From positions 15,254,001-15,318,000 of the forward strand of contig CM119372.1 in assembly GCA_051294905.1 (NCBI GenBank): 64,000 bases of DNA, written 5' to 3'. This document shows positions 22,881 to 55,600 of the stretch, piece after piece; position 1 is the stretch's first letter, and every line of letters starts with the position of its first letter. Origin of the DNA: Botryllus schlosseri (Eukaryota). The position numbers and the translations under genes were made by a program. The notes under the pieces were generated by a model that searched no databases, was not told the DNA's origin, and saw only the letters and a program-made list of their open reading frames with translations.

Positions 22881-22988
22881 TAGTGTGGGTTGCGTTTGCA
22901 GTGTGAGAGCAGTATAGCAGTTTCTATTTGAGTTTATCAAGGTCATCCTTTGACTCAATGTGGATTCTGGGTGCGCCATCATTCTTTT

Positions 22989-23756: not shown

Positions 23757-23809
23757 TTTGTTTCTTGGATGGGTATATAGCCTAGATTATAGCCTAGATT
23801 ACTTTAAAT

Positions 23810-23833
23810 CTTAATACAACCAAATACTCCAAT
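23810..23833 (-). other. Genomic copy of the 24-nt spliced leader at the LINE 5' end
   Basis: Reverse complement reads ATTGGAGTATTTGGTTGTATTAAG, identical to 43176-43199; matches my recollection of the Halocynthia/Botryllus SL. Confidence 0.8.
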
Positions 23834-25653
23834 CAACAACAGCGATAACATTTACTGCAAACTCATTGCACAGGAAGACAAACAGCGCAAAACAAAATCT
23901 CTGAGCTATCGTCACGACAAGTACGCCGGAGAAGTCAACATGGAAACAGCTAACCTGTACACTGCAGAAAACACTGTTGCTAAACCCACAACAATAGCAA
24001 AAGCAACACGAGTCCGATACAAAAATGCAACGCTCAAAATGAGAGAAACGATATGGGAGTCGATGCCTCTTCATGGACAGCACAAGAAGTTAACTTCACA
24101 GCCCCATGTAGACGAGCTTTCATGGACCTGGCTATCCAGCTCTGGCCTGAAACCGGCAAGCGAAGGATTCATTTTCGCAGCACAAGACCAATCGCTTCCT
24201 ACAAAATCCTATCGCAAAAGAATTCTGAAGCAAAACACGACGACAAATGCAGAATGTGCCACAACCAAAATGAAACTGTAGCACATCTCATGTCCGGCTG
24301 TGGTGCACTTGCAGCTACGGAATACCCACGGAGACACAATAGGATTGGTCTCCACATTCATCTTGAATTATGCAACAATTTTAACATCACCACTTCGACA
24401 AAAAATTGGTACGATTACAGCCCAGCACCAGTGACAGAAAACGAACAAGTAAAAATTCTGTGGGATGTACCAGTTATAACTGACCACGAAATCAGAAGTA
24501 ACCGCCCGGATATAATCGTCAAACTAAAAAAGAAAAGAGAATGCTTATTCATTGAACTGGCTGTCCCAGCTGATCACAACCTACTGCAAAAAGAATCAGA
24601 AAAACACTCCAAATACGCAGACCTCAAAATGGAATGTGAGAAAATGTGGCGGTGCAAAATAAACATTGTACCTATAGTCATTGGCGCTACAGGGGTCGTG
24701 AGCAAAAAACTCATGAGACATATCCAACAAATTCCGGGTAACGTTCGATTCGACATGATCCAAAAGATCACATTATTGGGCACTGTGCACATTCTTCGGA
24801 AGGCCTTGAATGCACCACTGGACTAAAATTACACTTGTGAATCAAAGCATTATTTCTGTAATTTCGATTCTTCATCTTCAATCATCTCTACCTCTGCTCT
24901 GTAACCCTTGCCAATTCTTCATCTGCTGCAATTCTGTAATCTGACTTCTCCATGTATTGCATAGGAATATCAATTTGAATGTATTACTGAAATTTTAAAA
25001 ATTTACTCCAATCTCGCCATTTTCCTTTGGGGGCAGGTTGCTCCCCGGATTATGTGTGTATTTACCAGTTTTACTGTGAATAAAGAATATAATAATAATA
25101 CGGTGTAAAAGGATCGAGGAGAGTAGGTTTATGATAATCTTGAGTCATGACACCTCCAATCCATCGTCGGTAGTGAGGTCACGATTTTCGACATCAGCTG
25201 TCGACTATATCACGTCACATAATTGCCAATGCTGAAGGTTGCGAAAACGGCAGGCAATCATCAACAGTCTATCGCATATATTAGAGCTCGCTACCTTGTG
25301 ATACGTTGCTACAACTTCAGTCTCGCGAGTATATGAGAACAGCAAATAGACTCACGATTCTGTGTGTTCTACTCAATCTAACTTGAGAATTCATAACAGT
25401 TTAATAACGGTAAAGCAGCTTTTAGACTACAACCAAAATTTGAGTTTTGTGGCGTCTCTCGACCCGAGCCTCATTCATGAAAGGAATTCATTTTTAATAT
25501 TACAGTTGTATGCTACGATTTTGCGGGCATTTTCATCGAAACTTTTTTTTCGACAGGGCACGCGGTCTCCAAATCGCTACAACACTCGAAAATCTATTGA
25601 TCATCCCCGAAATGTTATCTCATGTTGCAGAGTCCGTTCTAGCGTGTGTTACA

Positions 25654-35200: not shown

Positions 35201-38200
35201 TATTTCTTGAAGGTGGGGGAGATTGTTGGTGTTAATTTTATGTCTGTCCACCGTCTGAGCGATATTATTTTCAACTATGGAAGCTTTGAAACCTCCATTT
35301 GCCACATCGCAACATATTAAGCATTCAGTACAAAGCTACGCAATATGCACGTTATTGGAATGGCATATCTATGAAGACGTGTGTGTTCACACCACAGTCT
35401 GACGATCACTTTTTGTCAAAGGTGAACGCACACAGTGGGAATGTGCACTTTTGAATCCAAATTGAAATTAGCTGACATTATAATGTAGAATTGCGTGATC
35501 TAACAAACCGCAAAGTTACGGAAAACAATAGCTTTGAATGCTCACGGAAAATATATCTGTTGCAGCGGACTTTGCTTGACGAATATGCTAATAAATAGAA
35601 AAATCTTGAAAGGCCCGCTGAACTAATAGTGACTAATAGTGACTAAGAAGTAACCCCACCAATGTCTACCATACTGGTCCCCCAAACATTCGGTAACTTA
35701 CTGCTTTATCAGTAACTCGTGAATTCTAACTATTGGCTAGCGAGTGAATAGTTGTGGCTAAAAAGTATTAACAGCAATTCTAAATTGTTATCATGGTCGG
35801 TGTTGTAAGCTGCATGAATGCAGGTGGTTATGCGTGCATACCGCATCACCATTTGCATTAGATCTTTCGGAACCAGTGGGTAGGTTTTTGTGTCGGGTGA
35901 GTTGATTTTCCAACACTTCTGTCAATTTGGTTTTTACAACTACTGCTGTCTAACGACACGAAGTGAATACCGCTTGTTTCGCGGCTTTGGTTTAGTATAA
36001 GTAAATTGCATTACACAATGCGCTACATCGTGCATTCGAGTACACAAAGAAGAGTGGTAATTCTGACATATGTCAGTAACAAAACAGTATGTACATAGCA
36101 CCAGTCACGACTGCGCGTAAGATCAATAATTGAATTAAAGTACCGATTTCCACAAAAATTACCGGAAATCTCTTGTGCGGTGCAGGCAGTTATGAATAGG
36201 TATTCTGTTGAAAGGCCATAAAGTAGTATAGCTCAAAATGGTAGAATGCGAACTATCAACAACTTACCCTTTGCAGTTTAGGCAAAAAAGTACATGGTTT
36301 TACAATAACAATAACTAGAATTAATATGCGTGGTGTCGACCATATTTTGAATTTGAACTGTGCAGATTCCACACACATTGTAAATGTATTATGTATACTA
36401 TAGCAACATTTGCGCCTGTCACGAGAAAAAAGGTACATTTTGGAATAGCTGAATAGAGGGGTAGTTGCGCTTGGCATGGATTGTCGGGGTTGTGTGACGG
36501 CGGATTAGTGCGGGCGTGCGGTTGCGTCGCGCATAGTGGGTTCTGTCGCGTTGAAGTTTTCCGGCCGTGGAAAGATTTAATGTTCACCAAAATCTATTGA
36601 AGTCTAAATATAGATTTATCTTCGAATATTGGAACGGATAAATAACAACACCATTAACCTACTGAATTAGTCTACCTTGGTAATTGATGTTGTATTATGG
36701 TGCTCGACAGAAGGGGCTTTGTACCTAAATGTTACGTGGCAAGGAAGGGTTCAGTCGCCTAGCATTCCGTGGGTGATTACCGCTGTCGAGCCCACCGGTT
36801 TGTTGCTCGCTGTCTTTCGATTGGCGATGGTGGCGTGGTTAGAGATACCCAAGTCCTAACCTCCTTACGACCCTTTGAGAAGTTACTGAACCTCGTGACA
36901 GATTCTGCGGACAACTTGCCCCAAACAGGAGTGTTTTCCGCTAAATTGTAGAACTTGGATTGACTAATAATGTGTGAAAGGACGATATTGTGAGTCAAAA
37001 TCATACACATATGATGATAACTACACTATATACACGAAAAACCACGTTTTGAACGAAGTAGGTTTTAGTAGTTTCGGGCGCTAGGGAGTTAACAGTGCTT
37101 GTTACAAGTATAACATCGGTTTTTTAACAAATGGAGAAGTTTTTTTTTTTTTTCGGCTCTGGTTAAGCCTGTGGAAAGTAAATTTAATTCGCGCGAACTG
37201 GCCGAAGATTGCGGCTTGCGTAACAAGCGCAAATGCGAATTGCAGAACAAGCAAAAAATGTGAATTGCGTAATGAGTAAAAATTAAAAATTACATAACTA
37301 GCAAAACTGAGGATTGCATAACAAGAGGAAAAATAATTGATGTAACTGAGGAAGTTGCGGATTGGGTAATAGAGCCAAGTGCTGTTTATGTAATGCGTCA
37401 ATATGCGAATTTGGAATCAAATTGCGAAATTTTTGCAAAATAATTTTGCAGAAGGCGGTGGGAATTGCAATGTTGTAATGGCATAATGACGCGCAGGAAA
37501 CTATTAACTATTAACTATAGCGAAATGGTGCGATCTTGCTTAATCACAGTATAATCACTCCATAGGACGCCTTATAGGGGCAAAAAATTTGCTTGATGAA
37601 TGTTCGGATGTGCGTCAGTCCCTACTTTCCGAAAATAATTTATCGCTCGTAAAGATGGGGGGGCGGATGCAGGCATGTCAACGATCTTCCGCTCATAACT
37701 GAATATAACTCGAAGCGTAAGAACAGAAAATTCAGTTCACCCTACATAGAGCTGAACAGCATGAAGAGTCTAGAAAGTTAGCAGGGTTTGAAAAGAAGTT
37801 GACTAAGATTAATGACAAGTTAGTCAAATCTTATAGACAACAGCATTGCGACATTTAAGGATGGTTTTTAATTTGGTTTAGCAAATTATTTGTCTCTTGG
37901 TAAGTCACCTAAGATATTACAACCCTCGTTAATACGTGATGTTATCAGTTGTATGATCCTATGCCACATAGCTATAGGCAGGGGCTGTATCCGACCCCTC
38001 ACGCAAAATCACCTGGCCCAATACTTTGATGATACAAGATTATGACCACCATTTTATCATTCAAACGGACGTCATAGAACAAAAGAGGTTGAAATAGGTG
38101 ATGGAGAATATCTGGGCGGAATATAATATATCAGTGCTGACTAATCGAGTGGAATGAAGGATAATTTTAATATAATTTTGTCCCTCTAACCGAATCGTCA

Positions 38201-41200
38201 TCAATGTTATGCTAAAATAACCAGAAGCATGGAATCAATAGGACGAAATGATATCATCTTCCCTGTTTGCGCATTAAATCAAGTAGCTATACTTGCGTGA
38301 GGCTATTAACTGTGAAACAAAACGGCAACTTTGATCGAAAGTACGAATAACGCTGACTCATAATCTTATAATTAAAAAAAATAGGTATATAGCCTTGCTC
38401 TCCTGATACAGTTAATATCACAATCTGAACAAATAGAATTTACTACTTAAGGTAAAACATCTGAATATATGGGATATAAGGACATCTTCTAATCAAATCA
38501 GCATCTAGGAAAATTTCAACAGTACAAAGACATTGATGCTCATTTTCATATGAAGGGGAGAGAAAACAACAACGATGTACCTATAACCATAACATGAATA
38601 TTCACCCGCTTCCCTGACACCTCTTCTATACAAAAATAAATCCTAAATACTCAACGCTAATTCAATATCGACGCTAAATCTTGTCCGTAAAATTAAAATG
38701 AGCCTTCGGAAATGCGAGGCAGTCGGATTTAATGACGAATATTTCACACGGAGCATATTGCAATAAAAATACAATCTTGAAATCTATCTTTATCATATGA
38801 CCAATAATGCAAAGGTCACTACATTGATTTTTAGTAGTGTGCATACGTATGTGATCGATAGTTTTGAACACCAAAATTATGAAAGAACAAGCTAATATCA
38901 CGAATTTGGGAAGCCTATATGGAATATGGTTTGACTCTTGCTTCACCTGACCTATTGTCAGAAGTTGACGATCTTTCGTAAAGCAAGCGGCATCAATTAT
39001 GGCATTCATTTTGCGTTAATGAAGTATAAATGCTTGTGTTTTATGGTTGGGATGATTAAGTTTGCGTTGGATAGTATAATATACTGATATAAGCGTGAAA
39101 TATACCACGAAATAAAATCATGACTTGCTAAACACTCGCTCACTCATAATTTTGCCTGTGTCTAAAAAAGTACTGATGATCTCTGCTAAAGACGTTTGCA
39201 AATACAATCATTTGCGGCACATAATGACAGTAGGTCTGGAATTTTATGATTTATGGTATCAGCCTGCTGCCGACACCTTTTGCTATTATAGCTGTTCCTT
39301 ACATATAAACTGAAAATGGCATCTTCGCCGTCTGATTTTGGCATCTGATTCCGATAATCCTTTTGGGCATTGCTTGCAATGGCATAATATGACGCATTGC
39401 AGCGTATCGGTTGGGATCGCCACACTGGGGGATTCGATTTAGCCTGTGGCAAACTACTGGGTTCTATGCTAGGTTTATAGTTTTATAGGACAGATGCCAT
39501 GTCACCATGCAGTCGCAAGTGATCTCAAGCATCACGACTGTTACTAAGATTAATGCGTGCATTGCGGAAATAAAATGAATACGTTAATCCGTGATACTTA
39601 TATTCTTCGGCATTGCCGGTCATCGCAATGACTTGTGATTAGGGCTGGTCCATGTCAAGTATTTGAGTGATTCGATTCGGAATGGAGTATATATCAGGCT
39701 TCTGGTATAATCTGTGCATGTTCCCGCAAATAAGTTCATGATTATAACACACCGGACACTCAAACTTTGGCACACTGATATTAAAGGTCAATTGGTTTTT
39801 TTCACTTAGTCTAAAGTTCTAAAACATTAGCTGTGCTTTTGCGTATAGCTTGCTTCGTCGTGTCCTAATTTAGGCATTTTGGCACAATAATTCAACGCCA
39901 AGTATTTGCGACAACGAGGTCCGAGCCGCATAGACAACTCCCAGGGGTGTCAAACTCATATTACGTTGCGGGCCGGATAATTGTTGAACAATAACGACTT
40001 TGCGCAAGACGCCCTATCTAGAAAAAGTACTTGAAAGTTAGGAATGCGCTAGTCATATGTATGTGACGATTCCTACATCAAGGCGCAACTATTCTAGTTT
40101 GTGTACGTTGAAATTTGATGAGCTACGAATTTATTGATCCGCTTTAATGTGTGAAAGCTACGACTATCAAAGTCGTACCGTTCTCAAGCCTCCCTTATGT
40201 GCCAAGATGCTAACATAAATATAATGCGGTGGACTGTTCACAATTCAATAGCGTGGAAACGCCGGTGTGAGTTCGTGCCTTTCCAAAACGAGCCGCATTG
40301 TCACTGAGTTTCAAATGCATAAATCCGCGCTTCATGGATTGTAGCTATACAAAGTAAAAGGTCGTAAATTTAAGCTCTCAACTATAGGCACTGCAAATCT
40401 TATATTTCAGAGAATGCCTACACTGCCCCTCCAAATTGTTAAGGTAAGGAATTATAGTAACCGAAAAAATAGAGGTGACTTCTGTAGTCATGAGGCTGCC
40501 CATATGAGCCGTTAGTAAGAAGAATTGCCGTTGCGTAAGCAACAGATATAATCACCCTAAATAACTCTCAATAGAATTAAAAACAAAAATTCTTATATAC
40601 AATAGAAAAATACACACATCAGTTTTTGCGAAATTGATGTGTCGAATATTGAGTCCCAGGGTTCACGCTTTCGTTTCATGAGATCGATTGCGTCAACGCT
40701 AAATTAACAGAACGTGTTCGAACTTTATAATTGCCGATACTTACTATCGTGTCGAGTTAACAAAAATGCCGCCATTTTGTATTTCGAATTTGCGCATGGG
40801 TTAATGAATGAACAGTCGAATATGCTTTGTGGATTTGGCCGTTGTGTTGATAGCACTTTGTGCTTATCTGGAATTGTCGTATGCATGTTAGTAGTTAGCT
40901 ATACCATCAGGTTGCTTTACCGAAAATGGCGCCACCATTTTTCTATGTATGCGAACTTTTGCAGTGAGCTGAAGTATATGTAATATATGTGTGTATGCAT
41001 ATTGTATATCCATGCCATGTATGGTGCCCACATGAATTGTACATTCAATTGTAATATCCAATGACTACCAATGCAGACATCATGAATGTGTCCCCTAGTG
41101 TTGGCTAATTTCTGGCTCTACCAATGTAAAGCCACCAGCAGTCCAGCACTCTCGAAACACAGCCCAAAACGAAGCATCCAGTATCAGACTATATCCACAA

Positions 41201-41838
41201 AACAGTATATTGACGATTGATTGCGGGAGGTTCTAAAGTCTTTCGGCATTGAAGGGTGATGTTCGCATGTCCCCCTGGAAGCTCTTGACCTTATAATGAT
41301 TGGATCGGCTGCTTGCCACAGTTGCAAAGTATACAGAAATAAAGCAGTGCAATAAAATGGGATTGACTGCTAGCCGAAGTTGCAAAGTATACAGAAATGG
41401 AGAAGCCAAATGAAATGTGCTGGAATAGCTCCATGAAGTCGATGAACTAAAGATGAAAAGAGCCAAGAGTATAGAGATATTGCATTCGGAATCTCTGCCT
41501 ACGACGAACCCTCAACAAACGCCGCCTTCTGTTGGAATGCCCGATCCCCGAATCGACACGAAAGTACTTGATGATGTAAAGTACTCAACAAGGGGTCGGT
41601 TTCTGGACTGCTTTCGGTTCTATACCTGCAGCTGGAAGACTGGAGAACTCTTATAATACACGAGTCTGCAAGTTGGTCAACTTGAACTCTGAGTGTATTT
41701 TTTTGTAACATCTATTGGCATGTTTCTTGTATATTGCATATGCTTGTGTGTCGAGGCAGGAAAGGCCTTCACATTTATATGTGTAAACTAACCTTGGAGT
41801 ATTGAAAATGTTTATTAATCATGTATGATGATGTATAG

Positions 41839-43070
41839 CAGGGGTTCTCAACTTCGCTCGTATAACGGGCCGCATTGTAACAACAAAAGACGCCGCGGGC
41901 CGCATAACATTATCGCCACGTATTTGTGGGCTACTATTAAATTTAGGCTACTGTAGCCTATTTACCATTCTTATACGGAAATTTAGTACATTTTAATGCA
42001 TTCTAAAGCAATAATGGACAGCGTTCGTAAGTTTGCAGTTGCTGTTTTTTTTGTGACAATATCTATCTTTCAGCCGCGCAAGTAAATCCCTTCATGGAGC
42101 GTGCGCATAGCATTCGTTGCAAGTCGGTATATGCACCTTCAAACCTTTCCACCATATAGTCAAACCTCTGTTTCAATGCGTGAGCGAGCAAGTATAATAT
42201 TACGTTCACATTACGTTATTCGTTACAGAGGCCATTATCACTTTGAGCTCTCAGTGATACGAGAAGATGTCTGGTGTGCGGTCTCATTTCTGAGCAAACC
42301 AATCAACCCATCTCATTTTTCCATTACTGGACCCCAACACAGAGTTACAGAAGTCAGCTTTCTCCAGTTGATGTTTTTCACTGGTCCCATTCGCACGTTT
42401 GCCCCGTCAGCATTTACTCTGGAAATATGTCCATGTCCAATCTGATAAAACGCACCTGGATAATTAGCTATGCAATGTGTGTGAAGTCGGTGGATTCGTC
42501 CAACCCTAGAGGTTGAAGTAGTCTACGTGGCAACGTGTTTCAGAACACGCGATAAAACATCGACTGAGACTGCGCTGTTACTCTTCTGGTGACGATTGAA
42601 TCAGACAACTGTAGCTTCGAAATTTGTCAGGTGATGTTGTGTTGGCCTTGCTGCTAAGTTGCAGAAACAGCGAATATTCGCACAGTACGTTGGAAGTTTT
42701 ATAGCAGTCACACCTTCTCTCGCAGATTCTTGGGTTTAGCGATATTCTAAGAATTTTGAACAATGCGTCGGTAACGTCGTCGGCAATTTTAACAATGCCT
42801 CGAAATATGGATTGCTGGGCTTGACACCTAGCTAGCAACGTTTTACCTAAGATCAGGCGATATGTATAACTCCAGAAGAAACTATCGTGCTATCATTTTA
42901 AGCTTCTACGCTTCATTACAACAACTCTTCTTCGACAAATATGACACATCGGTCTTCCATAACAATACTGTGCCAGAAGCAATTGGGTTCATATTGGAAG
43001 ATGTCGCGGGCCGCAAAATAATCGTCGGCGGGCCGCATGCGGCCCGCGGGCCGCGGGTTGAGAACCCCTG
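41839..43070. mobile_element. hAT-type MITE
   Basis: TIR CAGGGGTTCTCAAC / GTTGAGAACCCCTG; 8-bp TSD ATGTATAG; GCGGGCCGC subterminal motifs. Confidence 0.9.
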
Positions 43071-43175
43071 ATGTATAGGTTAAACCGTGCTTTGTGTTAT
43101 AATTGATGAATGATGTGTATGCCAATTTAACCAAGCTTTGCATAGGGTTACCTCATTTCCGTCTGCATGATAATT

Positions 43176-43199
43176 ATTGGAGTATTTGGTTGTATTAAG
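43176..43199 (+). other. Complete 24-nt spliced-leader copy heading an LTR-type retroelement
   Basis: ATTGGAGTATTTGGTTGTATTAAG; not followed by GT, so it is not an SL RNA gene. Confidence 0.8.
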
Positions 43200-43467
43200 A
43201 TTTTAGATTACTTGTAAAGAGTTAGATTAGAGCTTTGGACCTAATGGTCATTGGCTGTTTGGAAACAAGACAATATTACGACTACGGAATACTTCAATCA
43301 ACATTTAAGACTGTGAAAAATCTCTAATCAACATCTACACATCTACGAACGTCGTCATTACTACACAAGAGAGCAAAGAGTGTCAACTTTTGTCCTACGA
43401 AGTATCCCGAACAAGTGTGGACTACTCGCATAACAATCGTTGTGGAGCTGCACTATAAAAACAAAAT

Positions 43468-43485
43468 TGGTGGCCAGTACGGGGA
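43468..43485 (+). promoter_or_regulatory. 18-nt primer binding site complementary to the tRNA-Ile(AAU) 3' end
   Basis: TGGTGGCCAGTACGGGGA is the reverse complement of TCCCCGTACTGGCCA-CCA; it follows ...AAACA and a 4-nt spacer. Confidence 0.85.
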
Positions 43486-43515
43486 AACTTCCGGTGTTCA
43501 GACGTTGACCAATCG

Positions 43516-43782
43516 ATGCTTTCTAAGACGACCATCGTAAAACTTGTACTTGTCGTATCCTTGCTTTCATCGTCTGTATCTCTCCTGATAATATTGGCAG
43601 CAATTTATCTGCACGTATCGCCTGGAGCGCTTTCTAATCTGTTGAACGTATTTTTGGGATCAAATAGCAGCGAACCCACTGCTTACGTCAAAACCACGAA
43701 TACGCCGCCAGGACCTACAGTCTTTTTCAACGCATCCTTGCCTGATTTAATATTTGTCAACAGTACTTCCTCTAGTCAATAG
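43516..43782 (+). CDS. 88-aa predicted membrane protein upstream of gag
   Basis: ATG-initiated; long hydrophobic N-terminal stretch followed by three N-x-S/T sequons; ends 8 nt before the gag ATG. Confidence 0.5.
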   Translation: MLSKTTIVKLVLVVSLLSSSVSLLIILAAIYLHVSPGALSNLLNVFLGSNSSEPTAYVKTTNTPPGPTVFFNASLPDLIFVNSTSSSQ

Positions 43783-43790
43783 AGAGTACT

Positions 43791-45620
43791 ATGCGAAGAA
43801 TATTGAAAGCATTTAAAAAGAAAAAGTCGTCAGAGGCAACAAAAGAACTCAAACAAGGGATTACCTTGCTTAAAGCGACACAAAAACGCCATGAAGATGC
43901 ACGGCGACAAGAAAGACAACTTGCTAAAGATGTGGCGGAACAAGCTGAACTTTTAAAGGAAGTAAAAACAGCTCTTCCGGAAACCATGAAAGGTTTAGAG
44001 AAGGCAAAGAAAGAGGTTCGAAAAGCTCAAGCGGACCTCAAAGCTGTTTGTGATGCCACAACAAAAGTTAGCGGGAACGTCTCCGCCGATGTGCTGAATG
44101 ACATTCTTACGTCAGAGTTTGAGCTCGGAAAGTCGCATGCACAGGTTACGCGAGATAGAACGCAACCTCCCATTTTGACGGTACTTCCAAATGCACCAGA
44201 ATATGATCCTCCGGCGTACGTTCTTGCTGCTGAGCGGCCAAGTGGGGACGTAAAACAAGGACCAACTATGACGGTTCGTAAGGGTTTAGATTGTCACACT
44301 GTAACGGCCGTCTATCCCACGTTCCCGAATTCCGTGCCCGTCGCATTATCCGACTCTTCTGAAGGATCAACGTCCTGTTTCCCTGTGGGTAGTGGTGCAC
44401 GCGCCAAACAAAAAAATGGAAACTTAGCAACGGTGGGAACAAGGCCGGAACCTGCAAAAAGTTCCTTGAGTAAATATAGTGGATATCAAGGATGGCAAGA
44501 ACGCCGCAATTCGGAGACAGAATCTCGTATAAATGCGGATGGCGCCTCCCGACGGGTAACCTTTCATAGTCCAGGGGAGGAACGATCTGATGCAGAAAAC
44601 AGTGAAGTTGATTTCAATACCCGACTAAAACGTGTTTCCAAAGAAATCAGAGATAATATAAGGTCCTTACGGGGCGGTGCAAGCTCTCAGGATTCCGCGG
44701 AAGAATCTCTCGATGAGGAACTTTCCGACATCTCTCGTTCTCCTGATACACCTCGCGCTACCTCCACTCCAAAAGAGTATGGGGGGAGGACTAGGCGACA
44801 ACAGCAACAACAACAGTTGCACCAATATCCAGGTGTAACAGTTCCAATGCTCAACGTACCCATTAAAATACAATCAGAAAAAGAAATGCTTCAGCTAATG
44901 GTGGATCCTGGAGACATGCCACTACTAAAGTGGATGGAAAATTCGATGCGACGAATACGTCACGGTCCCGGGAATACAGATGCTGATGTTATTTTGGCTA
45001 ATGCGATGCAGACGAAATTGAGGGCGGCTGGCAGACACAAGCATGCTACCCAACTGGGAAATTTTTTTAATACCAATTCGGGGGAAGCGGAATGGGAATC
45101 GGTGATGCGATCCCTTTCCTTATCCAATCCCCAGGGTTTGGTAAATGATGAGAAGATCATTGGGGATTTCCGCAGAAATTATCGCTGGGAGGATGAGCCG
45201 CTACCTCTGCTGAATAGCGCTTTGAAGCAACTAGAAATAGACATGGATAGTCTTATTGAGGATAATCCGGATGGATTGCGTCTTTTCCGAAATTTACGAC
45301 AACGACTACCAGAAGCACTCAGACTGATGTTACGAGGATGGGAAGAAGAGAAAACTTGGCGGGACGTTGCGGAGGAGCTACAACTCGTCTGGAACTCCGA
45401 GTTTCTGGATGAACAAGAGACGCGCCCTAGGAACCAGGAAACAAAGGAAGAGCGTGACACAAAGTCATCTTTACCGCCTGCACACTCGTCCCGAGGTAAT
45501 AGCCAAGTGGCTTGGACGGAACCTCAATACCCTGATCATCCACGTCGATATAATGCTTCATATTGGACGGATGATGAACTGAATCAAGGTATTCGACTCT
45601 CGATCGCTTGCGGGAGCTGA
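43791..45620 (+). CDS. gag: Gag-like protein (N-terminal coiled coil, PPxY late motif, helical capsid-like C-terminal region)
   Basis: 609-aa ORF between the PBS and the protease; PEYDPPAY; no CCHC knuckle seen. Confidence 0.65.
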   Translation: MRRILKAFKKKKSSEATKELKQGITLLKATQKRHEDARRQERQLAKDVAEQAELLKEVKTALPETMKGLEKAKKEVRKAQADLKAVCDATTKVSGNVSADVLNDILTSEFELGKSHAQVTRDRTQPPILTVLPNAPEYDPPAYVLAAERPSGDVKQGPTMTVRKGLDCHTVTAVYPTFPNSVPVALSDSSEGSTSCFPVGSGARAKQKNGNLATVGTRPEPAKSSLSKYSGYQGWQERRNSETESRINADGASRRVTFHSPGEERSDAENSEVDFNTRLKRVSKEIRDNIRSLRGGASSQDSAEESLDEELSDISRSPDTPRATSTPKEYGGRTRRQQQQQQLHQYPGVTVPMLNVPIKIQSEKEMLQLMVDPGDMPLLKWMENSMRRIRHGPGNTDADVILANAMQTKLRAAGRHKHATQLGNFFNTNSGEAEWESVMRSLSLSNPQGLVNDEKIIGDFRRNYRWEDEPLPLLNSALKQLEIDMDSLIEDNPDGLRLFRNLRQRLPEALRLMLRGWEEEKTWRDVAEELQLVWNSEFLDEQETRPRNQETKEERDTKSSLPPAHSSRGNSQVAWTEPQYPDHPRRYNASYWTDDELNQGIRLSIACGS

Positions 45621-45748
45621 TTGATCCGGTAAATCAGCTCCCAGATAATTTATTACCCCCAACATACAAAAACTGTACATAACTCTTCTTTACCCTTATT
45701 TACATTTCTTGATACGCCGGATGACCCATTACAGCCCGATTTACGGAA

Positions 45749-46045
45749 TTGTTCGGAGGCCAATTGTTGTATTTGATTGATACCATAACGGGTTCGAAAT
45801 TCCTAGCTGACACGGGAAGCATCCCCAATTTGATAATGAAAAGGTCGTTATTACTAAATACCCACAAAGCTGGGAGGAACGTCAACCAATAGACATGGAA
45901 TTGACAGGAATAGGTGGCTCGTCCCAAGTAGATTCCTTGGTAGAGATTAATTTTGATGGTCTGTCCGTTCCATTTGTGACCGGATTAGGAGTTCCACTTA
46001 ATATCATAGGGTTGAAATGGATTGAAAAAGTACAGCAATTACCAA
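45749..46045 (+). pseudogene. Retropepsin-type aspartic protease, frameshifted
   Basis: LYLIDTITGSKFLADTGS (DTG at 45809-45817), followed in the next frame by LTGIGG and NIIG. Confidence 0.75.
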
Positions 46046-46384
46046 GCATAGTAATTGGGTTGAAAACACCGTCTAATGCAATTGAAGATATGTCTTTAGT
46101 AACTCTACATGATGGGATCTCATGAGATCAACGGGACGGAACCAAAGTCGGAAGCAGTCCTCGCGACACTGTAACCGATGATGGGGTTGATGGAAGCTGC
46201 AAATCAAATAAGCGTCGAGCCGGCACGCTGGCCATCGCCGCTGGCTGTTGCCGCTGGCGCAAGTACCGAGATGGTAATCACCACTGGTGCGAACGACGAG
46301 TTGAAAATAGCAACTAACGTCACACAGAACCCATGGGAAACTATTGGTGTTGAGACAGGAATGCCTGCTAACACCGTTAATGAA

Positions 46385-46654
46385 GACGTCGAGCGTGGAA
46401 TCCCCGCTGGCGTAAATAAGGACCTGCACGAGAAAACTGGTCCCGAAGGCTCTTGCGGATGCACTTGTCCGGATAACTGTAAAGATCCGGCCCATAGATG
46501 CATGGCGACTGCCACAGCTGACATCGAACGAAGAATGTCCGCTGGCGAAAATAAAGACCTGCACGAGAAAACTGGTCCTAAATGCTTTCGTGGATGCACT
46601 TGTCCGAATTACCTTAATGAATCGGCCCATAGATGCATGACGACAGCCACAGTA
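46385..46654 (+). repeat. Two 135-bp in-frame repeats encoding a Cys/His-rich 45-aa unit
   Basis: NKDLHEKTGP...GCTCP...AHRCM occurs twice within ORF 46178-46906. Confidence 0.8.
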
Positions 46655-46949
46655 ATGAGTACTTTCCCAAAAGGTTCAAACGAAGCAGCGATTGCCGGTC
46701 AACCGGATATACACCCGGTCATGTCCGACAAGGAGTCTGGGGATTTTAGGATGCACGTCTCCCCAGAAAAAGGGTCCCCGGCGGAAAAGGAGTCCGTCGG
46801 CGTGACGGTAGGTGCGGGCACGCACCGACATCAGAGGCCTACATCGAAGGACCTCGCCCTCTCTCCACCAACAACAGAACCCCGTTCATCACGAGATTCC
46901 CATTAGCCAATGGCTGGCCAAGTTACCACAACAAGGGACCAGTCCAAGC

Positions 46950-47444
46950 GTTAAGACGGAACTCAAGAGTCTCATCATCGCCATGATCTTTGTAATGACT
47001 CAGTGGATGGATATCATCCCTGGGAAGGAATTTGCGGCGTCATTAAAAAGAAAATGGGGATGCAAATGAGAATTGAAGAAATCACGTACGTCATGAAAAG
47101 GTGCGACAGAGCAATAGTCTCGAAAAATGGATTGGCGGCCGCCCATGGACATACAAAGGGGACGCCTCCTCAATACTGTAAATATGAAGGTAACGAGATA
47201 TTGTACCCACATGACGACTGAAAACAATGCAAGACAGATAATGTCAGCAGGCATTGAACGAATGAACAGGAGATTCGTTCATTTGAGCAAAACGATAACG
47301 AAGAGAAGCAAAACAAGGAATGTGGTAATTTGTATGAAAGCAGCCGATATAAGGAATAAAGGGCTCGTGCTGCTGCAATCAAACGTACAAGAAGTGGTGT
47401 TGTGCGAAGGCCCTATACCACCCACGATCATACAAAAGATGTAA
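46950..47444 (+). pseudogene. kptA: Tpt1/KptA-family RNA 2'-phosphotransferase (ADP-ribosyltransferase fold) domain with about two frameshifts
   Basis: Joined frames give ELKSL..RH..DGY...AAAHGH...LY-HMT...IMSAGIERMNRRFVHLS...G...S...VVL...IPP, matching the LRH, DG(W/F), ANQGHS, LYHGT, MxRxHVHLS and VPP motifs in order. Confidence 0.8.
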
Positions 47445-49254
47445 AGCTGCTTTTGGCAGAGTGTAAATATGTGATATAATAAGGGTGAACGGACAAAAAT
47501 CCCTTTAATGGGAGCAAACGGACAAAACTGAAACGTCGTAACTAGAAAAAATGCTGAGTCAGCATTTTTCTATCTCGTGCGGAAAAACGAGAGAACAAGA
47601 AGAAAAAAGAATAAGTGATAGAATAAACAAGGAGATTGAATTAAATGATCATGGGGAAACATGATAGATGACGTCAATCATTCACACGAGTGAAGCGGGC
47701 ATATAGTTCACTAGTTCCCAATTTTCACTAGCTTGGTAATGAAACCGAAGTCTTCATTCGATATTTTGTTTGTGTCAAATACTTTGTAATAAACACATTT
47801 GAGTGGTTGAGCTTTACATCATCAAGCTGTCATCTGTAAATCGAGATCACATCCGACTTGTAACTGTATCGTTTACCTAACCGAGTTGTATGCACATTGC
47901 ACAGTTTCATATTTTTATCATTTAGTGATTGCTGAACATACCAAACGATACACATTCACTTCCGAAATACTGCGTTGATCTCAATTCCCTTTGTCGTGAT
48001 AACCGAAGTACATTTGTTTCGAATTCGTAACAGCCGACTTTTCTATGACACGATAAATTTTGACAAGTTATGCTTAGAAGATTGGTTGCATATCGCGAAA
48101 AATAACATACTGCTCATATTGATACTGTTAATCGGTATTTTCACGCGAGTCGATTTTCAAATGAGTAAAATTTATTACATGAGTTTCTCCGCTTAATGTA
48201 AATGAAAACTCAGTCGTCTTTTAACATCACAAAGACATTGATAAAAAGTAAGCAATCAAACACAACACTTTGTACGACACTGATTATTGTTCCACACATC
48301 TCATTTCATACTAAGTGTATACGAAAGATATTCATGTTACACGAAAATATTCGCTCATGCTACAAACCTGTACAATGATTGGTGGTGTAAGTCCAGCACA
48401 ATTGTGGTATCCATACGAGTTTAGTTAACACAATTTACGACACCGAGGTCGCCTCATCTTTCGTAAGACAACAAACCAAGGCTTCAGGATATGTCCATGT
48501 CATAACAATAAATCAGCTACTCCAACAACAGAGTACATATGTTTTCTAGCACGGTGCTTACATCTTACACACAAATCAACCTACTTTGCTAACGAAAAGT
48601 GCTGAGTCATCACATGGTTGTCCTCACAACAATACAACTAAAACATACTATCATACAAAATGGCCGTTATAGTTTGCACACCAACGATACATCGTACAAG
48701 TAGCAAGTCTCGAGAATCCAGTTATTCAAAAAACGTGAAAGTGTTTCTACACCAAGTCGGTATGTTGACGAAAGCATAAATTGTAATATCGTGATCGATT
48801 TACATTCGTTGGTCACAAAATGTCACTACTCTAAATAATTATTTTTCACTCAAAGCCTACTTGTCACCATTCGTTTCATCAAGCACGAGTTCAAGAAACC
48901 TGCTACGACATGAATTGTTATTTTTATGTTGTGTAAATAGGTAATAATTAATTTTAGTAACACTATATCAACATCATCGAGTTGCGCGAATAGATTTACA
49001 TGCGGTCTTGTGGTTTTAGTCGAAGTATACAGCACGGTCTAATGTAGAGTCATCTCTACTGTACAGCAACTCGGTAATCGAAATGCATTAAAATTTAAAC
49101 AACGATCTTGTTTCGTCGCACCAAAAATATGTTTACTATCGCGATACTCTGCACAGGCCGTGTAAATCCTTTTCACACTCGTAATAGTATACCAACAGCT
49201 ACCGGCGACAACGTTTAACAATACCAACAACACTAAACATACGATACCTACCCA

Positions 49255-49810
49255 AGTAAAATTACCATTTTCACCTAGAGGTCGGTCGTTACCCGAGTAG
49301 AAATACCATTATCCTTTGGAGATTTGTCGTTTACCCAGTGTAACAAACCCCTTTTCCTTTGGTAATCTATTTTTTCTCTGGGTAACAATCCTTTTTCACT
49401 TGGAAATATATTTTTTCTCTGGTTAACAAACCTTTTTCACTTGGAAATATATTTTTTCTCTGGTTAACAAACCTTTTTTCACTTGGAAATATATTTTTTC
49501 TCTGGGTAACAAACCTTTTTCACTTGGAAATATATTTTTTCCCCGGGTAACAAACCTTTTTCCCTGAGCAACAAACCATTTTCACTTGGTGATCCGTCGT
49601 TTACCCGAGTAAAAATATCATTTTCTTTTGGAGATCCGGCGTTTACCCAGTGTAACAATACATTTTCACTTGGAAAAATACTTTTACCTAGAGTAACTAA
49701 TCATTTTCTCCTGGGTAACAAACCCTTTTCGTCTGGAAACTATCATTTACCTGAGTACCAATACCGTTTTCACTTGGAAATCTATCTTTTCCCCGGGTAA
49801 CAATACCATT
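49255..49810. repeat. 41-42-bp tandem repeat array in the left arm
   Basis: Unit TTTTCACTTGGAAATATATTTTTTCTCTGGTTAACAAACC, degenerating towards both edges. Confidence 0.85.
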
Positions 49811-50789
49811 TTCGTTTTGAAAACTGACAACCACACCGGTCAATTTGATATTTTTTGTATATTGTTACAACAGACAGCGACAAAATATACACCAACAACG
49901 ACTCCGATACATTTGTCTAATCAAATCTTCACTTGTTCTGGTGCATCCCATCAAAATCGACGGTTAGCCACACACACACACACGCACACACAATACCAAT
50001 GCACTATTTCGATATGACTGCGATGTCCGGGTTCGTGCTTTAGATTTTCCAGAACCAATCCGTCTAAAGTTGTAATCCCCCCGCCTTTGTTAACTGGTTG
50101 ATACACGGATAACAATCTTCGGAAAATGTAGGAACGCATACTACCCATCGTGCTAACGATTCCAGGTTACTTGTGATTAATTTCCTTGCTCACCCTATAC
50201 AGATTATACGTACAGCGATATGTAGTGGTAATCGGTTTGGTCAATACATATCGCCCCATTCAGTATGGAATTACAAACCCAATACAGGTCAGTTCATAAC
50301 CGGATCCGGATATTCAATGCAAAGCGATAAAGCAGAACCAATTACCAAATGTAATTAAACATGTAGATTCACAACCCTTGATTTTTTTTTCGTGAAAAAT
50401 GACAATACATATCGAATATATATTTTACGATGGTTCAACCCTGCCAAGTATTCACGTAAATGTGGTTTATGACATTACATACAATGTATCAGTGTATCAA
50501 TGTTGGGTGTTTATGCACACATCGGTATGACCCATAGACAATATCATCATACCCTCCAGGACTTCGTTATTGCATCGTGAGGTCAATAAAATCAATCGGT
50601 GGCATAGACGACAGAAGGCTTGGAGATCCAATGTAAAATTCAGACAAACAAACGGATATATTTGTCCATCTTGGTTATTCACTCAACTACCATTGGTGCT
50701 CTCGATACAGCGAACGGTACAGTATGCAACGCATATCATTCGAGTGATATATCCACAGATAAATATGGGGCCTGGCCACAATAATTGTA

Positions 50790-51128: not shown

Positions 51129-52107
51129 TACAATTATTGTGGCCAGGCCCCATATTTATCTGTGGATATATCACTCGAATGATATGCGTTGCATACTGTA
51201 CCGTTCGCTGTATCGAGAGCACCAATGGTAGTTGAGTGAATAACCAAGATGGACAAATATATCCGTTTGTTTGTCTGAATTTTACATTGGATCTCCAAGC
51301 CTTCTGTCGTCTATGCCACCGATTGATTTTATTGACCTCACGATGCAATAACGAAGTCCTGGAGGGTATGATGATATTGTCTATGGGTCATACCGATGTG
51401 TGCATAAACACCCAACATTGATACACTGATACATTGTATGTAATGTCATAAACCACATTTACGTGAATACTTGGCAGGGTTGAACCATCGTAAAATATAT
51501 ATTCGATATGTATTGTCATTTTTCACGAAAAAAAAATCAAGGGTTGTGAATCTACATGTTTAATTACATTTGGTAATTGGTTCTGCTTTATCGCTTTGCA
51601 TTGAATATCCGGATCCGGTTATGAACTGACCTGTATTGGGTTTGTAATTCCATACTGAATGGGGCGATATGTATTGACCAAACCGATTACCACTACATAT
51701 CGCTGTACGTATAATCTGTATAGGGTGAGCAAGGAAATTAATCACAAGTAACCTGGAATCGTTAGCACGATGGGTAGTATGCGTTCCTACATTTTCCGAA
51801 GATTGTTATCCGTGTATCAACCAGTTAACAAAGGCGGGGGGATTACAACTTTAGACGGATTGGTTCTGGAAAATCTAAAGCACGAACCCGGACATCGCAG
51901 TCATATCGAAATAGTGCATTGGTATTGTGTGTGTGTGTGTGTGTGTGTGGCTAACCGTCGATTTTGATGGGATGCACCAGAACAAGTGAAGATTTGATTA
52001 GACAAATGTATCGGAGTCGTTGTTGGTGTATATTTTGTCGCTGTCTGTTGTAACAATATACAAAAAATATCAAATTGACCGGTGTGGTTGTCAGTTTTCA
52101 AAACGAA

Positions 52108-52663
52108 AATGGTATTGTTACCCGGGGAAAAGATAGATTTCCAAGTGAAAACGGTATTGGTACTCAGGTAAATGATAGTTTCCAGACGAAAAGGGTTTGT
52201 TACCCAGGAGAAAATGATTAGTTACTCTAGGTAAAAGTATTTTTCCAAGTGAAAATGTATTGTTACACTGGGTAAACGCCGGATCTCCAAAAGAAAATGA
52301 TATTTTTACTCGGGTAAACGACGGATCACCAAGTGAAAATGGTTTGTTGCTCAGGGAAAAAGGTTTGTTACCCGGGGAAAAAATATATTTCCAAGTGAAA
52401 AAGGTTTGTTACCCAGAGAAAAAATATATTTCCAAGTGAAAAAAGGTTTGTTAACCAGAGAAAAAATATATTTCCAAGTGAAAAAGGTTTGTTAACCAGA
52501 GAAAAAATATATTTCCAAGTGAAAAAGGATTGTTACCCAGAGAAAAAATAGATTACCAAAGGAAAAGGGGTTTGTTACACTGGGTAAACGACAAATCTCC
52601 AAAGGATAATGGTATTTCTACTCGGGTAACGACCGACCTCTAGGTGAAAATGGTAATTTTACT
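52108..52663. repeat. 41-42-bp tandem repeat array in the right arm (inverted copy)
   Basis: Reverse complement of 49255-49810. Confidence 0.85.
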
Positions 52664-55600
52664 TGGGTAGGTATCGTATGTTTAGTGTTGTTGGTATTGT
52701 TAAACGTTGTCGCCGGTAGCTGTTGGTATACTATTACGAGTGTGAAAAGGATTTACACGGCCTGTGCAGAGTATCGCGATAGTAAACATATTTTTGGTGC
52801 GACGAAACAAGATCGTTGTTTAAATTTTAATGCATTTCGATTACCGAGTTGCTGTACAGTAGAGATGACTCTACATTAGACCGTGCTGTATACTTCGACT
52901 AAAACCACAAGACCGCATGTAAATCTATTCGCGCAACTCGATGATGTTGATATAGTGTTACTAAAATTAATTATTACCTATTTACACAACATAAAAATAA
53001 CAATTCATGTCGTAGCAGGTTTCTTGAACTCGTGCTTGATGAAACGAATGGTGACAAGTAGGCTTTGAGTGAAAAATAATTATTTAGAGTAGTGACATTT
53101 TGTGACCAACGAATGTAAATCGATCACGATATTACAATTTATGCTTTCGTCAACATACCGACTTGGTGTAGAAACACTTTCACGTTTTTTGAATAACTGG
53201 ATTCTCGAGACTTGCTACTTGTACGATGTATCGTTGGTGTGCAAACTATAACGGCCATTTTGTATGATAGTATGTTTTAGTTGTATTGTTGTGAGGACAA
53301 CCATGTGATGACTCAGCACTTTTCGTTAGCAAAGTAGGTTGATTTGTGTGTAAGATGTAAGCACCGTGCTAGAAAACATATGTACTCTGTTGTTGGAGTA
53401 GCTGATTTATTGTTATGACATGGACATATCCTGAAGCCTTGGTTTGTTGTCTTACGAAAGATGAGGCGACCTCGGTGTCGTAAATTGTGTTAACTAAACT
53501 CGTATGGATACCACAATTGTGCTGGACTTACACCACCAATCATTGTACAGGTTTGTAGCATGAGCGAATATTTTCGTGTAACATGAATATCTTTCGTATA
53601 CACTTAGTATGAAATGAGATGTGTGGAACAATAATCAGTGTCGTACAAAGTGTTGTGTTTGATTGCTTACTTTTTATCAATGTCTTTGTGATGTTAAAAG
53701 ACGACTGAGTTTTCATTTACATTAAGCGGAGAAACTCATGTAATAAATTTTACTCATTTGAAAATCGACTCGCGTGAAAATACCGATTAACAGTATCAAT
53801 ATGAGCAGTATGTTATTTTTCGCGATATGCAACCAATCTTCTAAGCATAACTTGTCAAAATTTATCGTGTCATAGAAAAGTCGGCTGTTACGAATTCGAA
53901 ACAAATGTACTTCGGTTATCACGACAAAGGGAATTGAGATCAACGCAGTATTTCGGAAGTGAATGTGTATCGTTTGGTATGTTCAGCAATCACTAAATGA
54001 TAAAAATATGAAACTGTGCAATGTGCATACAACTCGGTTAGGTAAACGATACAGTTACAAGTCGGATGTGATCTCGATTTACAGATGACAGCTTGATGAT
54101 GTAAAGCTCAACCACTCAAATGTGTTTATTACAAAGTATTTGACACAAACAAAATATCGAATGAAGACTTCGGTTTCATTACCAAGCTAGTGAAAATTGT
54201 TTTCTATTGGATGGATATGATTTACCTTTAGAAAAACGATATAGACCTATTAAGCGACGCTGTTTCATATCCGTCGAGTGAGTAAAATTTCTTTGGAGTT
54301 CGGTTTAGTGAGATAATTGTTAGGGATTCAATCACATACAAGTAACGTCTTTTAGTGATAGAGTATTGTGATGACATTTACTCTAGTGAATGACAACGGA
54401 AAAATTTTCGATTGTATTGTCGGTGTATGTGTTAGACAAATAATTCTAGTACACCTAACTATAGGATACATTTGGCAAACATCGTACAAAATGTTTCGTT
54501 GTGATGGTAACGACTTTCAGCGGTTTGGTTTCATGTCGGGGAATTATTATTTGGGGGTTCAAAAACAATCATTACTACAAATGAACAACAATGCAAAACA
54601 CGTTAAGTGAATTACAGTGTAGCAAGTACTTCATTGATATTACGATTGTTGTGTACCAGACATTTCTAACTGAATTGAATGCATCTAGCAAACATATTCC
54701 AATTTGTTTTTTGTAATGATCAAAGTGTGTGAAATGGCGCGAACGGATTAAGCATTAATCAAGCGGCGATATGTCAATTCACCTAGTGTGATATCTTGAC
54801 ACCGGGAAATGTGCGAAAGTGTTTCAATTCCCACCGCAGATTACGACGATAAAGTATTGTACCGGTTATTGTTCAACAAAGAAAATTGTTGTTTCATCTT
54901 TAGTCTTGGTTACTGGAGACAATTACATTTGTAAATTATTTCCTGATTTCCACAATACGCTGCGTGGTTTTTACGAACACGGCTTAATCTTCCCAATCAA
55001 AACATTTCAGACATGTTAATCTAGTTTTACAAATCGATATGTTAATAACAATGTTTCTGAAAAGTTTGTTGGTATCGTAATAACCTTCAACACAACCTGG
55101 TCTAATAATGTCATAATTTAATAATCAAGTCATGATCGACTATTACAAAATCTCATATGTCAAAATCAATGTGTCAATTCGTGAAAATTTTCAATATAAC
55201 ACCTGCGTTCGATTGTAAGAATTCTCAACTACGTTGGTCGGACATTCAAATCTCGTATACTCAAATGTAATGTGTTAATCTCAAACCGCGCGCCAAGTAG
55301 TAATTACTTCATCTTGCAGTTGAATAAAAAAAAATATGGGACATGGATACAACTGAGTTGGTATGTTTGTGGGTTGTAGTGATTACTCGCGTAGTCTTGT
55401 CTACTTTCATACGGACACTTTTTGTTTTGGTTTGGTGAGTTACTACAAACGGATTGACTTACCAAGGTTTTTGTATTTTACTCGTTTGTGCATGGCGAGA
55501 TGTTAAAATGTTGAGTTGTCATAGTGATAGTATTTCTGAAACTCTATTTTACAAACGGAAACGGAGTCGTGAATAGAGTTGTCAGTTTCAAGGATTGTTT

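Follow-up and report, generated by a model that had tools for sequence, protein, structure and literature searches.

A gag-pol cassette ending in a Tpt1/KptA domain forms the 3' part of a Merlin-type composite mobile element in the tunicate Botryllus schlosseri

Mobile genetic elements are classed by whether they are copied through RNA or cut out as DNA. Among those copied through RNA, Ty3/gypsy elements and retroviruses have a Gag protein with a CCHC knuckle, a −1 frameshift heptamer, a protease (PR) of the D-T/S-G type, an RVT_1 reverse transcriptase (RT), an RT_RNaseH-type RNase H (RH), a tRNA primer-binding site (PBS) at which primers can be switched, and a polypurine tract (PPT). Among those moved as DNA, the Merlin superfamily is defined in PMC8101967 by 5'-GG termini, target-site duplications (TSDs) of 8–9 bp and a DDE_Tnp_IS1595 domain, and the same source records Merlin transposons from ascidians. 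Here we analyze a 64,000-nucleotide stretch of the Botryllus schlosseri genome (assembly GCA_051294905.1, contig CM119372.1, positions 15,254,001 to 15,318,000, forward strand; hereafter the window, in whose own numbering positions are given), of which 43176–47718 hold a gag-protease cassette that is headed by a spliced leader (SL) and ends in a Tpt1/KptA domain. This region represents the retrovirus-like 3' cassette of a composite tunicate mobile element, in a copy that is dead and has suffered internal deletions. The element joins a cut-and-paste transposase to a gag-pol unit whose Pol ends in Tpt1 at the usual place of integrase. To the structural and evolutionary account as a whole, including transposase-mediated integration, we assign a probability of about 0.7.

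The element shares with Ty3/gypsy elements and retroviruses the features listed above, with a PPT-like run standing for the tract. Unlike them, it has neither long terminal repeats (LTRs) nor an integrase in the copies read, it carries Tpt1 behind RNase H, its cassette lies inside a unit bounded by terminal inverted repeats (TIRs) with DDE transposases and is never found alone, and its TSD measures 8 bp, as against the 4–6 bp usual for LTR retroelements and retroviruses. With Merlin it has in common all three defining features, namely an IS1595 transposase near the 5' end, 5'-GG...CC-3' termini and an 8-bp TSD. It differs from Merlin elements, which are a few kilobases long, in having ends that lie 12–80 kb apart (about 35–38 kb in most full-length relatives), two transposase paralogues, and many co-oriented genes that include a gag-pol with RT. 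By these features the element is not an LTR retrotransposon, as it lacks LTR and integrase, and it agrees with Merlin in the defining features, though not clearly in TIR length. The closest whole-element analogy is Teratorn of medaka (PMC10175614), a 180-kb fusion of a piggyBac transposon and a herpesvirus whose virus-like gene set is integrated by the cut-and-paste transposase; relative to Teratorn, the virus-like part of the present element is reverse-transcribing, its transposase is of the Merlin type and its size is in the tens of kilobases. In a giant-transposon review (PMC6431247), the word "Merlin" does not occur. In a literature search outside which lay supplements and Repbase, no paper was found that unites a Merlin or DDE transposase with gag-pol or RT in a single element, and none that joins Tpt1/KptA with retroelements, in line with the first-pass annotation of the window, which knew of no case of Tpt1 as an LTR retroelement accessory.

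The boundaries of the mobile unit were obtained from related copies in the same 495-Mb assembly. Eight sister copies align to the window from 34062–34067 through 47718–47729. When the two flanks are joined with one copy of CAATTTTC, a 112-nt string results that is matched exactly on the other arm of a palindrome, at 54140–54251. Because of this exact empty site, the mobile unit can be set to 34067–47718 with an 8-bp target duplication; its start lies at 34067 and not at 43176, where the first-pass annotation had placed it. The window copy amounts to 13,652 bp, including a nested 1.23-kb insertion. Its termini read GGTACTAGTGAA ... TTCACTAGTTCC, i.e. 5'-GG ... CC-3', with 11 of the 12 terminal bases pairing and about 18 pairing when the comparison is extended to 24 bp (counted by eye). 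TSDs of 8 bp flank all five copies with both ends at hand (the window copy and four of the eight fetched), and the duplications differ among copies. The 5' terminal 26-mer has 48 occurrences in the genome at up to 3 mismatches, compared to none for a reversed control. The 5' terminus lies 11–16 kb upstream of Tpt1 in the deletion derivatives and about 32–55 kb upstream of it in most long copies. The unit was inserted as DNA, as the 8-bp duplication and the GG...CC inverted termini document, by a transposase-type reaction with 8-bp staggered joining to the target.

The insertion is hosted by a perfect palindrome (about 30700–57560) with arms of about 6.4 kb and a 339-nt loop. Its arm segments 47719–50789 and 51129–54199 correspond to each other, as do 33258–34066 and 54192–55000, and the arms run about 3.3 kb further outward. 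They hold 41-nt minisatellites (49289–49815 and 52103–52588), and inverted pairs of the same arms, spaced by about 5 kb, recur at many genome sites.

A 34-kb copy, L040, was read end to end. All of its open reading frames (ORFs) of at least 129 aa outside the gag-pol cassette lie on one strand, and its genes follow each other in this order:

Gene 1, directly behind the 5' terminus: DDE_Tnp_IS1595 transposase (Pfam E 5.9e-11).
L040:1434–4013: ORF2, 860 aa.
L040:4088–7507: ORF3, 1140 aa.
Next: several ORFs without assignment and a leucine-rich-repeat (LRR) protein.
Next: a second IS1595-type transposase (Pfam E 1.6e-17) and a ubiquitin-conjugating enzyme (E2).
Last, ending about 280 nt short of the 3' terminus: the SL-headed gag-pol cassette, with SL, leader, tRNA PBS, small transmembrane (TM) ORF, gag (CCHC), A_AAA_AAC −1 frameshift site and pol.
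Within pol of the full-length cassette: PR, Cys/His linker, RT, RNase H, Tpt1.

The transposases match the NCBIfam profile for IS1595 transposases (NF033547) at E 1.5e-18 to 3.9e-28 over profile positions 2–214 of 215, and from their sequences they appear to be a paralogous pair of Merlin/IS1595-type DDE enzymes. ORF2 and ORF3 each begin like a signal peptide, end in a C-terminal membrane anchor and contain 11–13 N-glycosylation sequons, and are thus predicted to be type-I membrane-glycoprotein-like, envelope-like proteins. ORF2 further contains a hydrophobic segment in its interior and a tail rich in Cys, and is 57% identical in a subfamily with permuted gene order (see below). In a protein atlas, ORF2 found a single, unnamed homologue, while ORF3 had no match at 0.9 or above. 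The LRR protein and the E2 are host-like cargo.

The window copy belongs to a young family (family A), in which longer cassettes (L037–L039) were read for comparison. In these, Gag is open over about 963 aa and includes a CCHC knuckle (it is in two pieces in L038), and the open Pol frame of 1152–1205 aa runs in the order PR-RT-RH-Tpt1, so that the intact copies which the first-pass annotation proposed to look for do exist. L038 Pol gave Pfam matches to RVT_1 (1.4e-17), RT_RNaseH_2 (2.2e-19) and PTS_2-RNA (2.2e-9; 38 bits, profile 6–177 of 177); no integrase (rve) was detected in the Pfam scan of Pol, and the Pol ORFs of the copies read terminate with Tpt1. A genome search with an RT-RH-Tpt1 query yielded 1,505 candidates, 64 of which were scored, at identities from 100% to 51%. 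Among these 64 Pol loci, 58 span the whole query, 61 reach the end of Tpt1 and 56 are without a stop. As 58 of 64 related loci read PR-RT-RNase H-Tpt1, the Tpt1 domain occupies the integrase position and does not replace RT. The first-pass annotation had seen Tpt1 in place of both RT and integrase; this fails for RT, which full-length copies retain. Apart from the one close relative (P0004), the nearest database pols (n=15) combine RVT_1 and RT_RNaseH at 21–25% identity; an integrase domain accompanies these in 11 of the 15, and a single one bears the name gypsy in its source.

At least 40 copies of the Tpt1 stretch occur in the genome, at 82–100% identity (40 scored of 74 candidates). Sixteen of the 40 matches cross the linker-Tpt1 junction of the window, and the other 24 end at window 46969–46979. 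Since 16 matches share the junction, the loss of RT and RNase H is a deletion in one derivative lineage. This RT-less derivative, present in at least 16 copies, was amplified without an RT or transposase of its own and therefore moved in trans. Relative to L038, the window copy lacks about aa 432–1004 of Pol (RT and RNase H) and about aa 198–500 of the second Gag piece, knuckle included, and it is frameshifted in both protease and Tpt1, which bears out the first-pass view of a non-autonomous copy. The individual features that this annotation had listed (SL, PBS, ORFs, protease, Cys/His repeat, Tpt1) were likewise all recovered where it had placed them, and the window copy is laid out as follows:

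34059–34066, no strand: left copy of the 8-bp TSD, CAATTTTC, identical to 47719–47726; single copy on the other palindrome arm.
34067–34078, + strand: 5' end of the mobile unit, GGTACTAGTGAA, matching the inverted 3' end at 11/12 positions.
34669–34983, + strand: remnant of the 1140-aa glycoprotein-like ORF3 (aa 914–1022, 39% identity; tblastn).
41839–43068, no strand: nested 1.23-kb insertion with ends CAGGGG...CCCCTG and an 8- to 10-bp duplication (sister-copy comparison).
43069–43174, + strand: conserved stretch directly upstream of the SL (cross-subfamily comparison).
43175–43199, + strand: DNA-encoded host spliced leader, 25 nt, 24/25 positions of the tunicate SL consensus.
43200–43467, + strand: leader, 268 nt, with blocks conserved across subfamilies.
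43468–43485, + strand: PBS, complementary at 18/18 positions to the tRNA-Ile(AAT) 3' end plus CCA.
43516–43782, + strand: small single-pass membrane ORF, 88 aa, one TM helix, present in all subfamilies read.
43791–45620, + strand: truncated Gag-like ORF, 609 aa (ORF list; comparison with a full-length copy).
45725–46122, + strand: aspartic protease in two frames, with motifs LADTGS ... TGIGG ... NIIGLKW.
46175–46906, + strand: linker ORF with two Cys/His repeat units (133-nt copies at 46385–46517 and 46520–46652).
46926–46979, + strand: junction left by the deletion; full-length copies have about 570 further residues here, RT and RNase H (copy alignment).
46973–47444, + strand: Tpt1/KptA domain (Pfam), in frames 46973–47206 and 47208–47441, with stop 47442–47444.
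47589–47615, + strand: PPT-like run (from the letters only).
47622–47627, + strand: AATAAA, candidate polyadenylation signal (from the letters only).
47707–47718, + strand: 3' terminus of the mobile unit, TTCACTAGTTCC (sister-copy alignment).
47719–47726, no strand: right copy of the 8-bp TSD, identical to the left copy.
54140–54251, − strand: exact empty site (left flank, one duplication copy, right flank), 112/112 nt identical.

The protease is frameshifted too, as its LADTGS part (frame 45725–45889) continues in a second frame (45811–46122); its Pfam RVP match is weak (E 0.15). The number of Cys/His repeats differs among copies. The nested insertion, presumably a hAT-type non-autonomous element, is missing in two of the eight sister copies (C5a, C5b). 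Pfam and repeat searches found no RT, RNase H, integrase or LTR in the window copy, a scan of 84 open frames in 34067–43175 gave no Pfam match at or near the cut-offs, and no Rfam family reached its gathering score over the whole window.

A genome search with the transposase gave 112 matches, and in 60 of the 64 cases a Pol locus has one of them on its own strand at a distance of no more than 85 kb. Pol and transposase identities fall jointly (Spearman rho 0.88, a descriptive value only, the loci being related). Cassette and transposase are linked and co-diverge in every subfamily found. The transposase lies 11–55 kb upstream of pol in most subfamilies; at seven loci, its start follows the pol match at a distance of about 90 nt. 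A locus of this kind that was read in part has the order second transposase, SL, small ORF, gag, pol, first transposase, first glycoprotein-like ORF, which is a circular permutation of the gene order in the 34-kb copy; two transposases and one envelope-like glycoprotein are thus present here as well. The transposase directly downstream of pol had suggested a "compact" subfamily, a reading that was rejected because the locus proved to be a permuted giant. At this locus, a single TAG (L044:4838–4840) separates pol, ending in Tpt1, from the in-frame transposase frame, the first Met of which lies 67 codons past the TAG; homology to the other transposase starts 44 codons before that Met. Four of the six loci of the permuted subfamily keep the pol-transposase spacing (by coordinates). 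Judged from this arrangement, stop-codon read-through could give rise to a Pol-transposase fusion.

All genes tested are under purifying selection. Between this permuted subfamily and that of the 34-kb copy, with every frame open in both, synonymous sites approach saturation (pS 0.6–0.9), and pN/pS values are 0.07 for RT-RH, 0.22 for pol, 0.23 for gag, 0.30 for the second transposase (Tnp2), 0.31 for the first (Tnp1), 0.35 for Tpt1 and 0.37 for ORF2. Within family A, dN/dS is 0.01–0.06 for RT, 0.05–0.07 for RNase H, 0.09–0.26 for the protease, 0.18–0.25 for Tpt1 and 0.42–0.78 for the Cys/His linker. The small membrane ORF has a dN/dS of 0.33–0.45.

The Tpt1/KptA domain is real and part of the polyprotein, as the first-pass annotation had maintained: the second piece encoded in the window (47118–47441) by itself matches PTS_2-RNA at E 4.1e-9 (37.2 bits; cut-off 26). 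For the domain of an open copy, an AF2 model based on a 15-sequence alignment reached a pLDDT of 89.2, and in a Foldseek search of the PDB, ranks 1–21 were all Tpt1/KptA (E 1e-10 to 6e-6), with a TM score of about 0.7 where both lobes superpose and 0.37–0.53 in five rows. Going by their entry titles, the matches include archaeal KptA with DNA and with 5'-phospho-ADP-ribosylated DNA. The element domain is therefore predicted to adopt, over its whole 179 residues, the two-lobe fold (RNA lobe and NAD+ lobe) of cellular and prokaryotic Tpt1/KptA (PF01885; PDB 8tfi, 6e3a, 9ld4). It differs from these enzymes in being fused to the Pol C-terminus, shows 19–22% identity to the solved structures and scores far under the NCBIfam equivalog cut-offs (50 vs 231 bits).

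The catalytic tetrad of Pyrococcus Tpt1 is given in PMC10622864 as Arg14-His15-Arg62-Arg115. R26-H27 of the element align to Arg14-His15 of this protein (PhoTpt1), and R122 aligns to the arginine of the MxR...HLS motif; all three, for which the match to tetrad residues is unambiguous, are still encoded in the window copy. R69 is invariant in 15 of 15 aligned sequences and stands opposite PhoTpt1 Arg62 in gap-free MAFFT alignments. Missing from the whole element clade are the "IRA" motif arginine, which corresponds to Ape Arg72, and a counterpart of Lys60. The idea that a catalytic Arg had been lost with the "IRA" motif was rejected, as this residue is structural in the RNA lobe, according to PMC10622864 and by residue counting. 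Described Tpt1 enzymes remove internal RNA 2'-phosphates and ADP-ribosylate 5'-phosphate ends of RNA or DNA in one step (as reported in PMC6182162 and PMC12170183).

The element Tpt1 is highly divergent, and only 31 of 1.84 billion representative proteins match it at E≤0.001. Among 14 of these matches analyzed with Pfam, five (P0004, P0023, P0027, P0037, P0044) have RNase H, with or without RT, before Tpt1, and a marine metagenome contig reads gag(CCHC)-PR-RT-RH-Tpt1 at 48% identity (the metagenome relatives L047 and L048 being too short for a transposase linkage to be seen). The layout thus recurs in other public sequences and, together with the 61 Pol loci that reach the domain end, speaks against a one-off capture, the outcome that would have undone the first-pass proposal. 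A 198-aa Styela clava protein annotated as "probable RNA 2'-phosphotransferase" (P0024) matches at E 1e-23 with 35% identity, whereas ordinary proteins of stand-alone Tpt1/KptA size came out at E 1e-6 or worse in the same search; by its sequence, P0024 may be a mis-annotated element fragment rather than the host TRPT1.

Several features of the cassette relate to reverse transcription. Compared with the 25-nt tunicate consensus "Chordata 1" (PMC3795323, Table 1), its SL has a single mismatch in the window copy and none in L038. Raw RNA reads from the same species that map to L038 show a template-switch oligo, the 25-mer and then divergence (1825 reads in run X14, 3461 in run X18). Because thousands of reads diverge right after the 25-mer, it is the host's genuine spliced leader; the SL peak is the only one formed by RNA reads on L038. 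By coordinate comparison, an SL (at most 1 mismatch in 21) lies 4–6.5 kb upstream of Pol in 18 of 22 Pol loci, the 22 being those on three contigs for which SL matches were fully listed, and including subfamilies with 52–55% Pol identity. The sequence upstream of the SL is itself part of the repeated element, two subfamilies sharing 80% identity over the 183 nt that precede it in full-length copies. In two subfamilies (L031:1497–1532, L043:5831–5866), an 11-nt part of the SL 3' end is present a second time directly behind the full SL, an arrangement that calls to mind several successive cycles of trans-splicing and reverse transcription.

The PBS 15-mer (without CCA) equals the end of both tRNA-Ile(AAT) genes fetched, and a more distant family retains 15 of the 18 PBS positions. 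In other subfamilies, the PBS position is taken by a different 17-mer, the complement of which ends both tRNA-Thr(AGT) genes fetched. By these complementarities, the PBS has switched from tRNA-Ile to tRNA-Thr between subfamilies, while staying behind the same conserved leader block. A third variant looks Gln-like. The gag-pol overlap of the open copy carries the classical −1 slippery heptamer A_AAA_AAC, which is lost in the window copy. As regards LTRs, no direct repeat of at least 18 nt connects the two sides of the cassette in L037–L039, and no direct repeat of at least 40 nt was found in window 33000–55000 besides internal repeats.

Based on these results, we suggest that tRNA-primed reverse transcription would still be working in the element lineage, and that the Merlin-type DDE transposase would carry out genomic integration, the job of integrase in retroviruses. 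Tpt1 is proposed to be an active NAD+-dependent enzyme acting on nucleic-acid phosphates while tethered beside RT/RNase H. It might ADP-ribosylate, and so cap, 5'-phosphate ends of replication intermediates, or it might remove RT-blocking 2'-phosphates from template or primer RNA; either of these roles, taken singly, is doubtful. A tRNA-Ile(AAT) is not known to carry an intron, which would weaken the idea of primer repair. The window copy itself would perform none of these steps and would have been moved in trans. More tentatively still than the structural account, and at somewhat less than even odds for all parts jointly, the family may represent a novel class of virus-like mobile elements that reverse transcribe and are probably enveloped. 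In such an element, a Merlin/IS1595 DDE transposase would have been swapped in for the retroviral integrase, an added Tpt1-type NAD+-dependent enzyme would mark or repair the ends of replication intermediates, cDNA-derived genomes would be integrated by cut-and-paste chemistry, giving 8-bp TSDs, and the host spliced leader would be regained at every RNA generation.

A number of observations weigh against the composite element as outlined here. The well-matched inverted termini extend over only 12 bp, compared to the 24–462 bp quoted for Merlin in PMC8101967, and the termini of the permuted subfamily were not found within the stretch read. Every insertion examined can be explained by pure DNA transposition. 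No R repeat or LTR is available for the usual strand transfers, and about 27 kb separate the PBS from the 5' terminus in the family-A copy that was read completely, which makes it hard to see how cDNA could rebuild a TIR-to-TIR unit. In four RNA runs, of each of which 6–13% was read, no gag-pol expression was seen (depth 0–1 over the cassette), a result that we do not read as proof that the element is silent. The central domain of Gag gave a poor model (pLDDT 61.4) with no Foldseek match at E≤0.001, and its CCHC knuckle is just at the Pfam cut-off (21.2 vs 20.8 bits); as this central domain lacks a fold match, the label "Gag" rests on position, frameshift site and CCHC knuckle. Finally, a HMMER pairwise alignment shifts R69 by two residues from the tetrad arginine, placing it opposite PhoTpt1 Lys60, so that the match of R69 to Arg62 depends on the MAFFT alignments.

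Some of these observations are what would be expected if the cassette were a mere passenger, i.e. if the trans-spliced transcript of an LTR retroelement had been reverse transcribed and captured by a Merlin transposon, and had since spread solely by DNA transposition with no part in this spread for RT, PBS or Tpt1. An SL at the front is expected in DNA copied from a trans-spliced RNA, LTRs are absent, transposition with TIRs and TSDs covers the insertions examined, a derivative without RT multiplied, and the RNA runs showed no expression. However, mere cargo would not be expected to exhibit strong selection on RT, RH, PR, gag and Tpt1 over distances at which synonymous sites approach saturation, nor the exchange of the Ile PBS for another perfectly tRNA-complementary site, for Thr, at the same position. 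Retention of the −1 frameshift site and, down to 52% Pol identity, of the SL upstream of Pol, as well as the extra partial SL copy in two subfamilies, also tell against it, and we consider capture as a passenger unlikely. Less probable again is the stand-alone, non-autonomous gag-protease retroelement of the first-pass annotation, with Tpt1 replacing RT and integrase; indeed, the copies compared refute it, and among the explanations weighed here we give it the least credence by far. While the gag-PR-linker-Tpt1 order is real and the window copy is devoid of RT, RNase H and integrase, the RT-RH gap is a deletion common to one lineage (the 16 of 40 matches across the junction), complete RT-RH-Tpt1 is present in 58 of 64 Pol loci, and the unit starts 9.1 kb upstream, at 34067, with transposon-type termini and TSDs. 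The cassette is no retroelement short of its second LTR but forms the 3' module of a Merlin-type DNA transposon bounded by TIRs, and three full-length cassettes are equally LTR-less.

A large, enveloped, pararetrovirus-like reverse-transcribing virus, endogenous in the genome as differently linearised copies of a circular DNA form, would account for the circularly permuted gene order between subfamilies and would fit with a tRNA PBS plus PPT-like tract, with two envelope-like ORFs bearing signal peptide, C-terminal anchor and 11–13 sequons, and with integrase and LTR not having been found. Yet the ends in family A are fixed, the 48 matching 5' termini having the same sequence, and the 8-bp TSDs are clean, which points to integration by transposase and not to random capture. 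Furthermore, 34 kb is far above the traditional limit of about 10 kb that PMC6431247 mentions for RNA-copied elements, and Gag found no capsid fold match. We regard such a virus as improbable, ranking it between the passenger and the stand-alone retroelement, although it overlaps the composite transposon with a gag-pol cassette, our preferred explanation, more than it excludes it.

The family keeps the machineries of RNA-copied and DNA-cut elements as one co-diverging gene set. A selected RT and tRNA primer site here stand alongside a selected, non-retroviral DDE transposase, and therefore the origin and exchangeability of integrase become directly testable. The question of what Tpt1/KptA does outside tRNA splicing in fungi and plants gains a defined genetic context from the element; with the domain joined to RT/RNase H, primer, template and cDNA ends become candidate substrates open to testing.

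Two further retroelements lie on the − strand of the window. A non-LTR retrotransposon at 20074–23834 (ORF1 22989–23786; ORF2 with endonuclease and RT, EN-RT, 20074–22749) begins with a perfect 25-nt spliced leader (23810–23834); it differs from the cassette described above, which is a tRNA-primed gag-pol inside a DNA transposon. An LTR-type retroelement at 13017–16852, as read from its translation, encodes a gag with two CCHC knuckles and a 1013-aa PR-RT-RH-integrase ORF, and forms a contrast to the integrase-less cassette.

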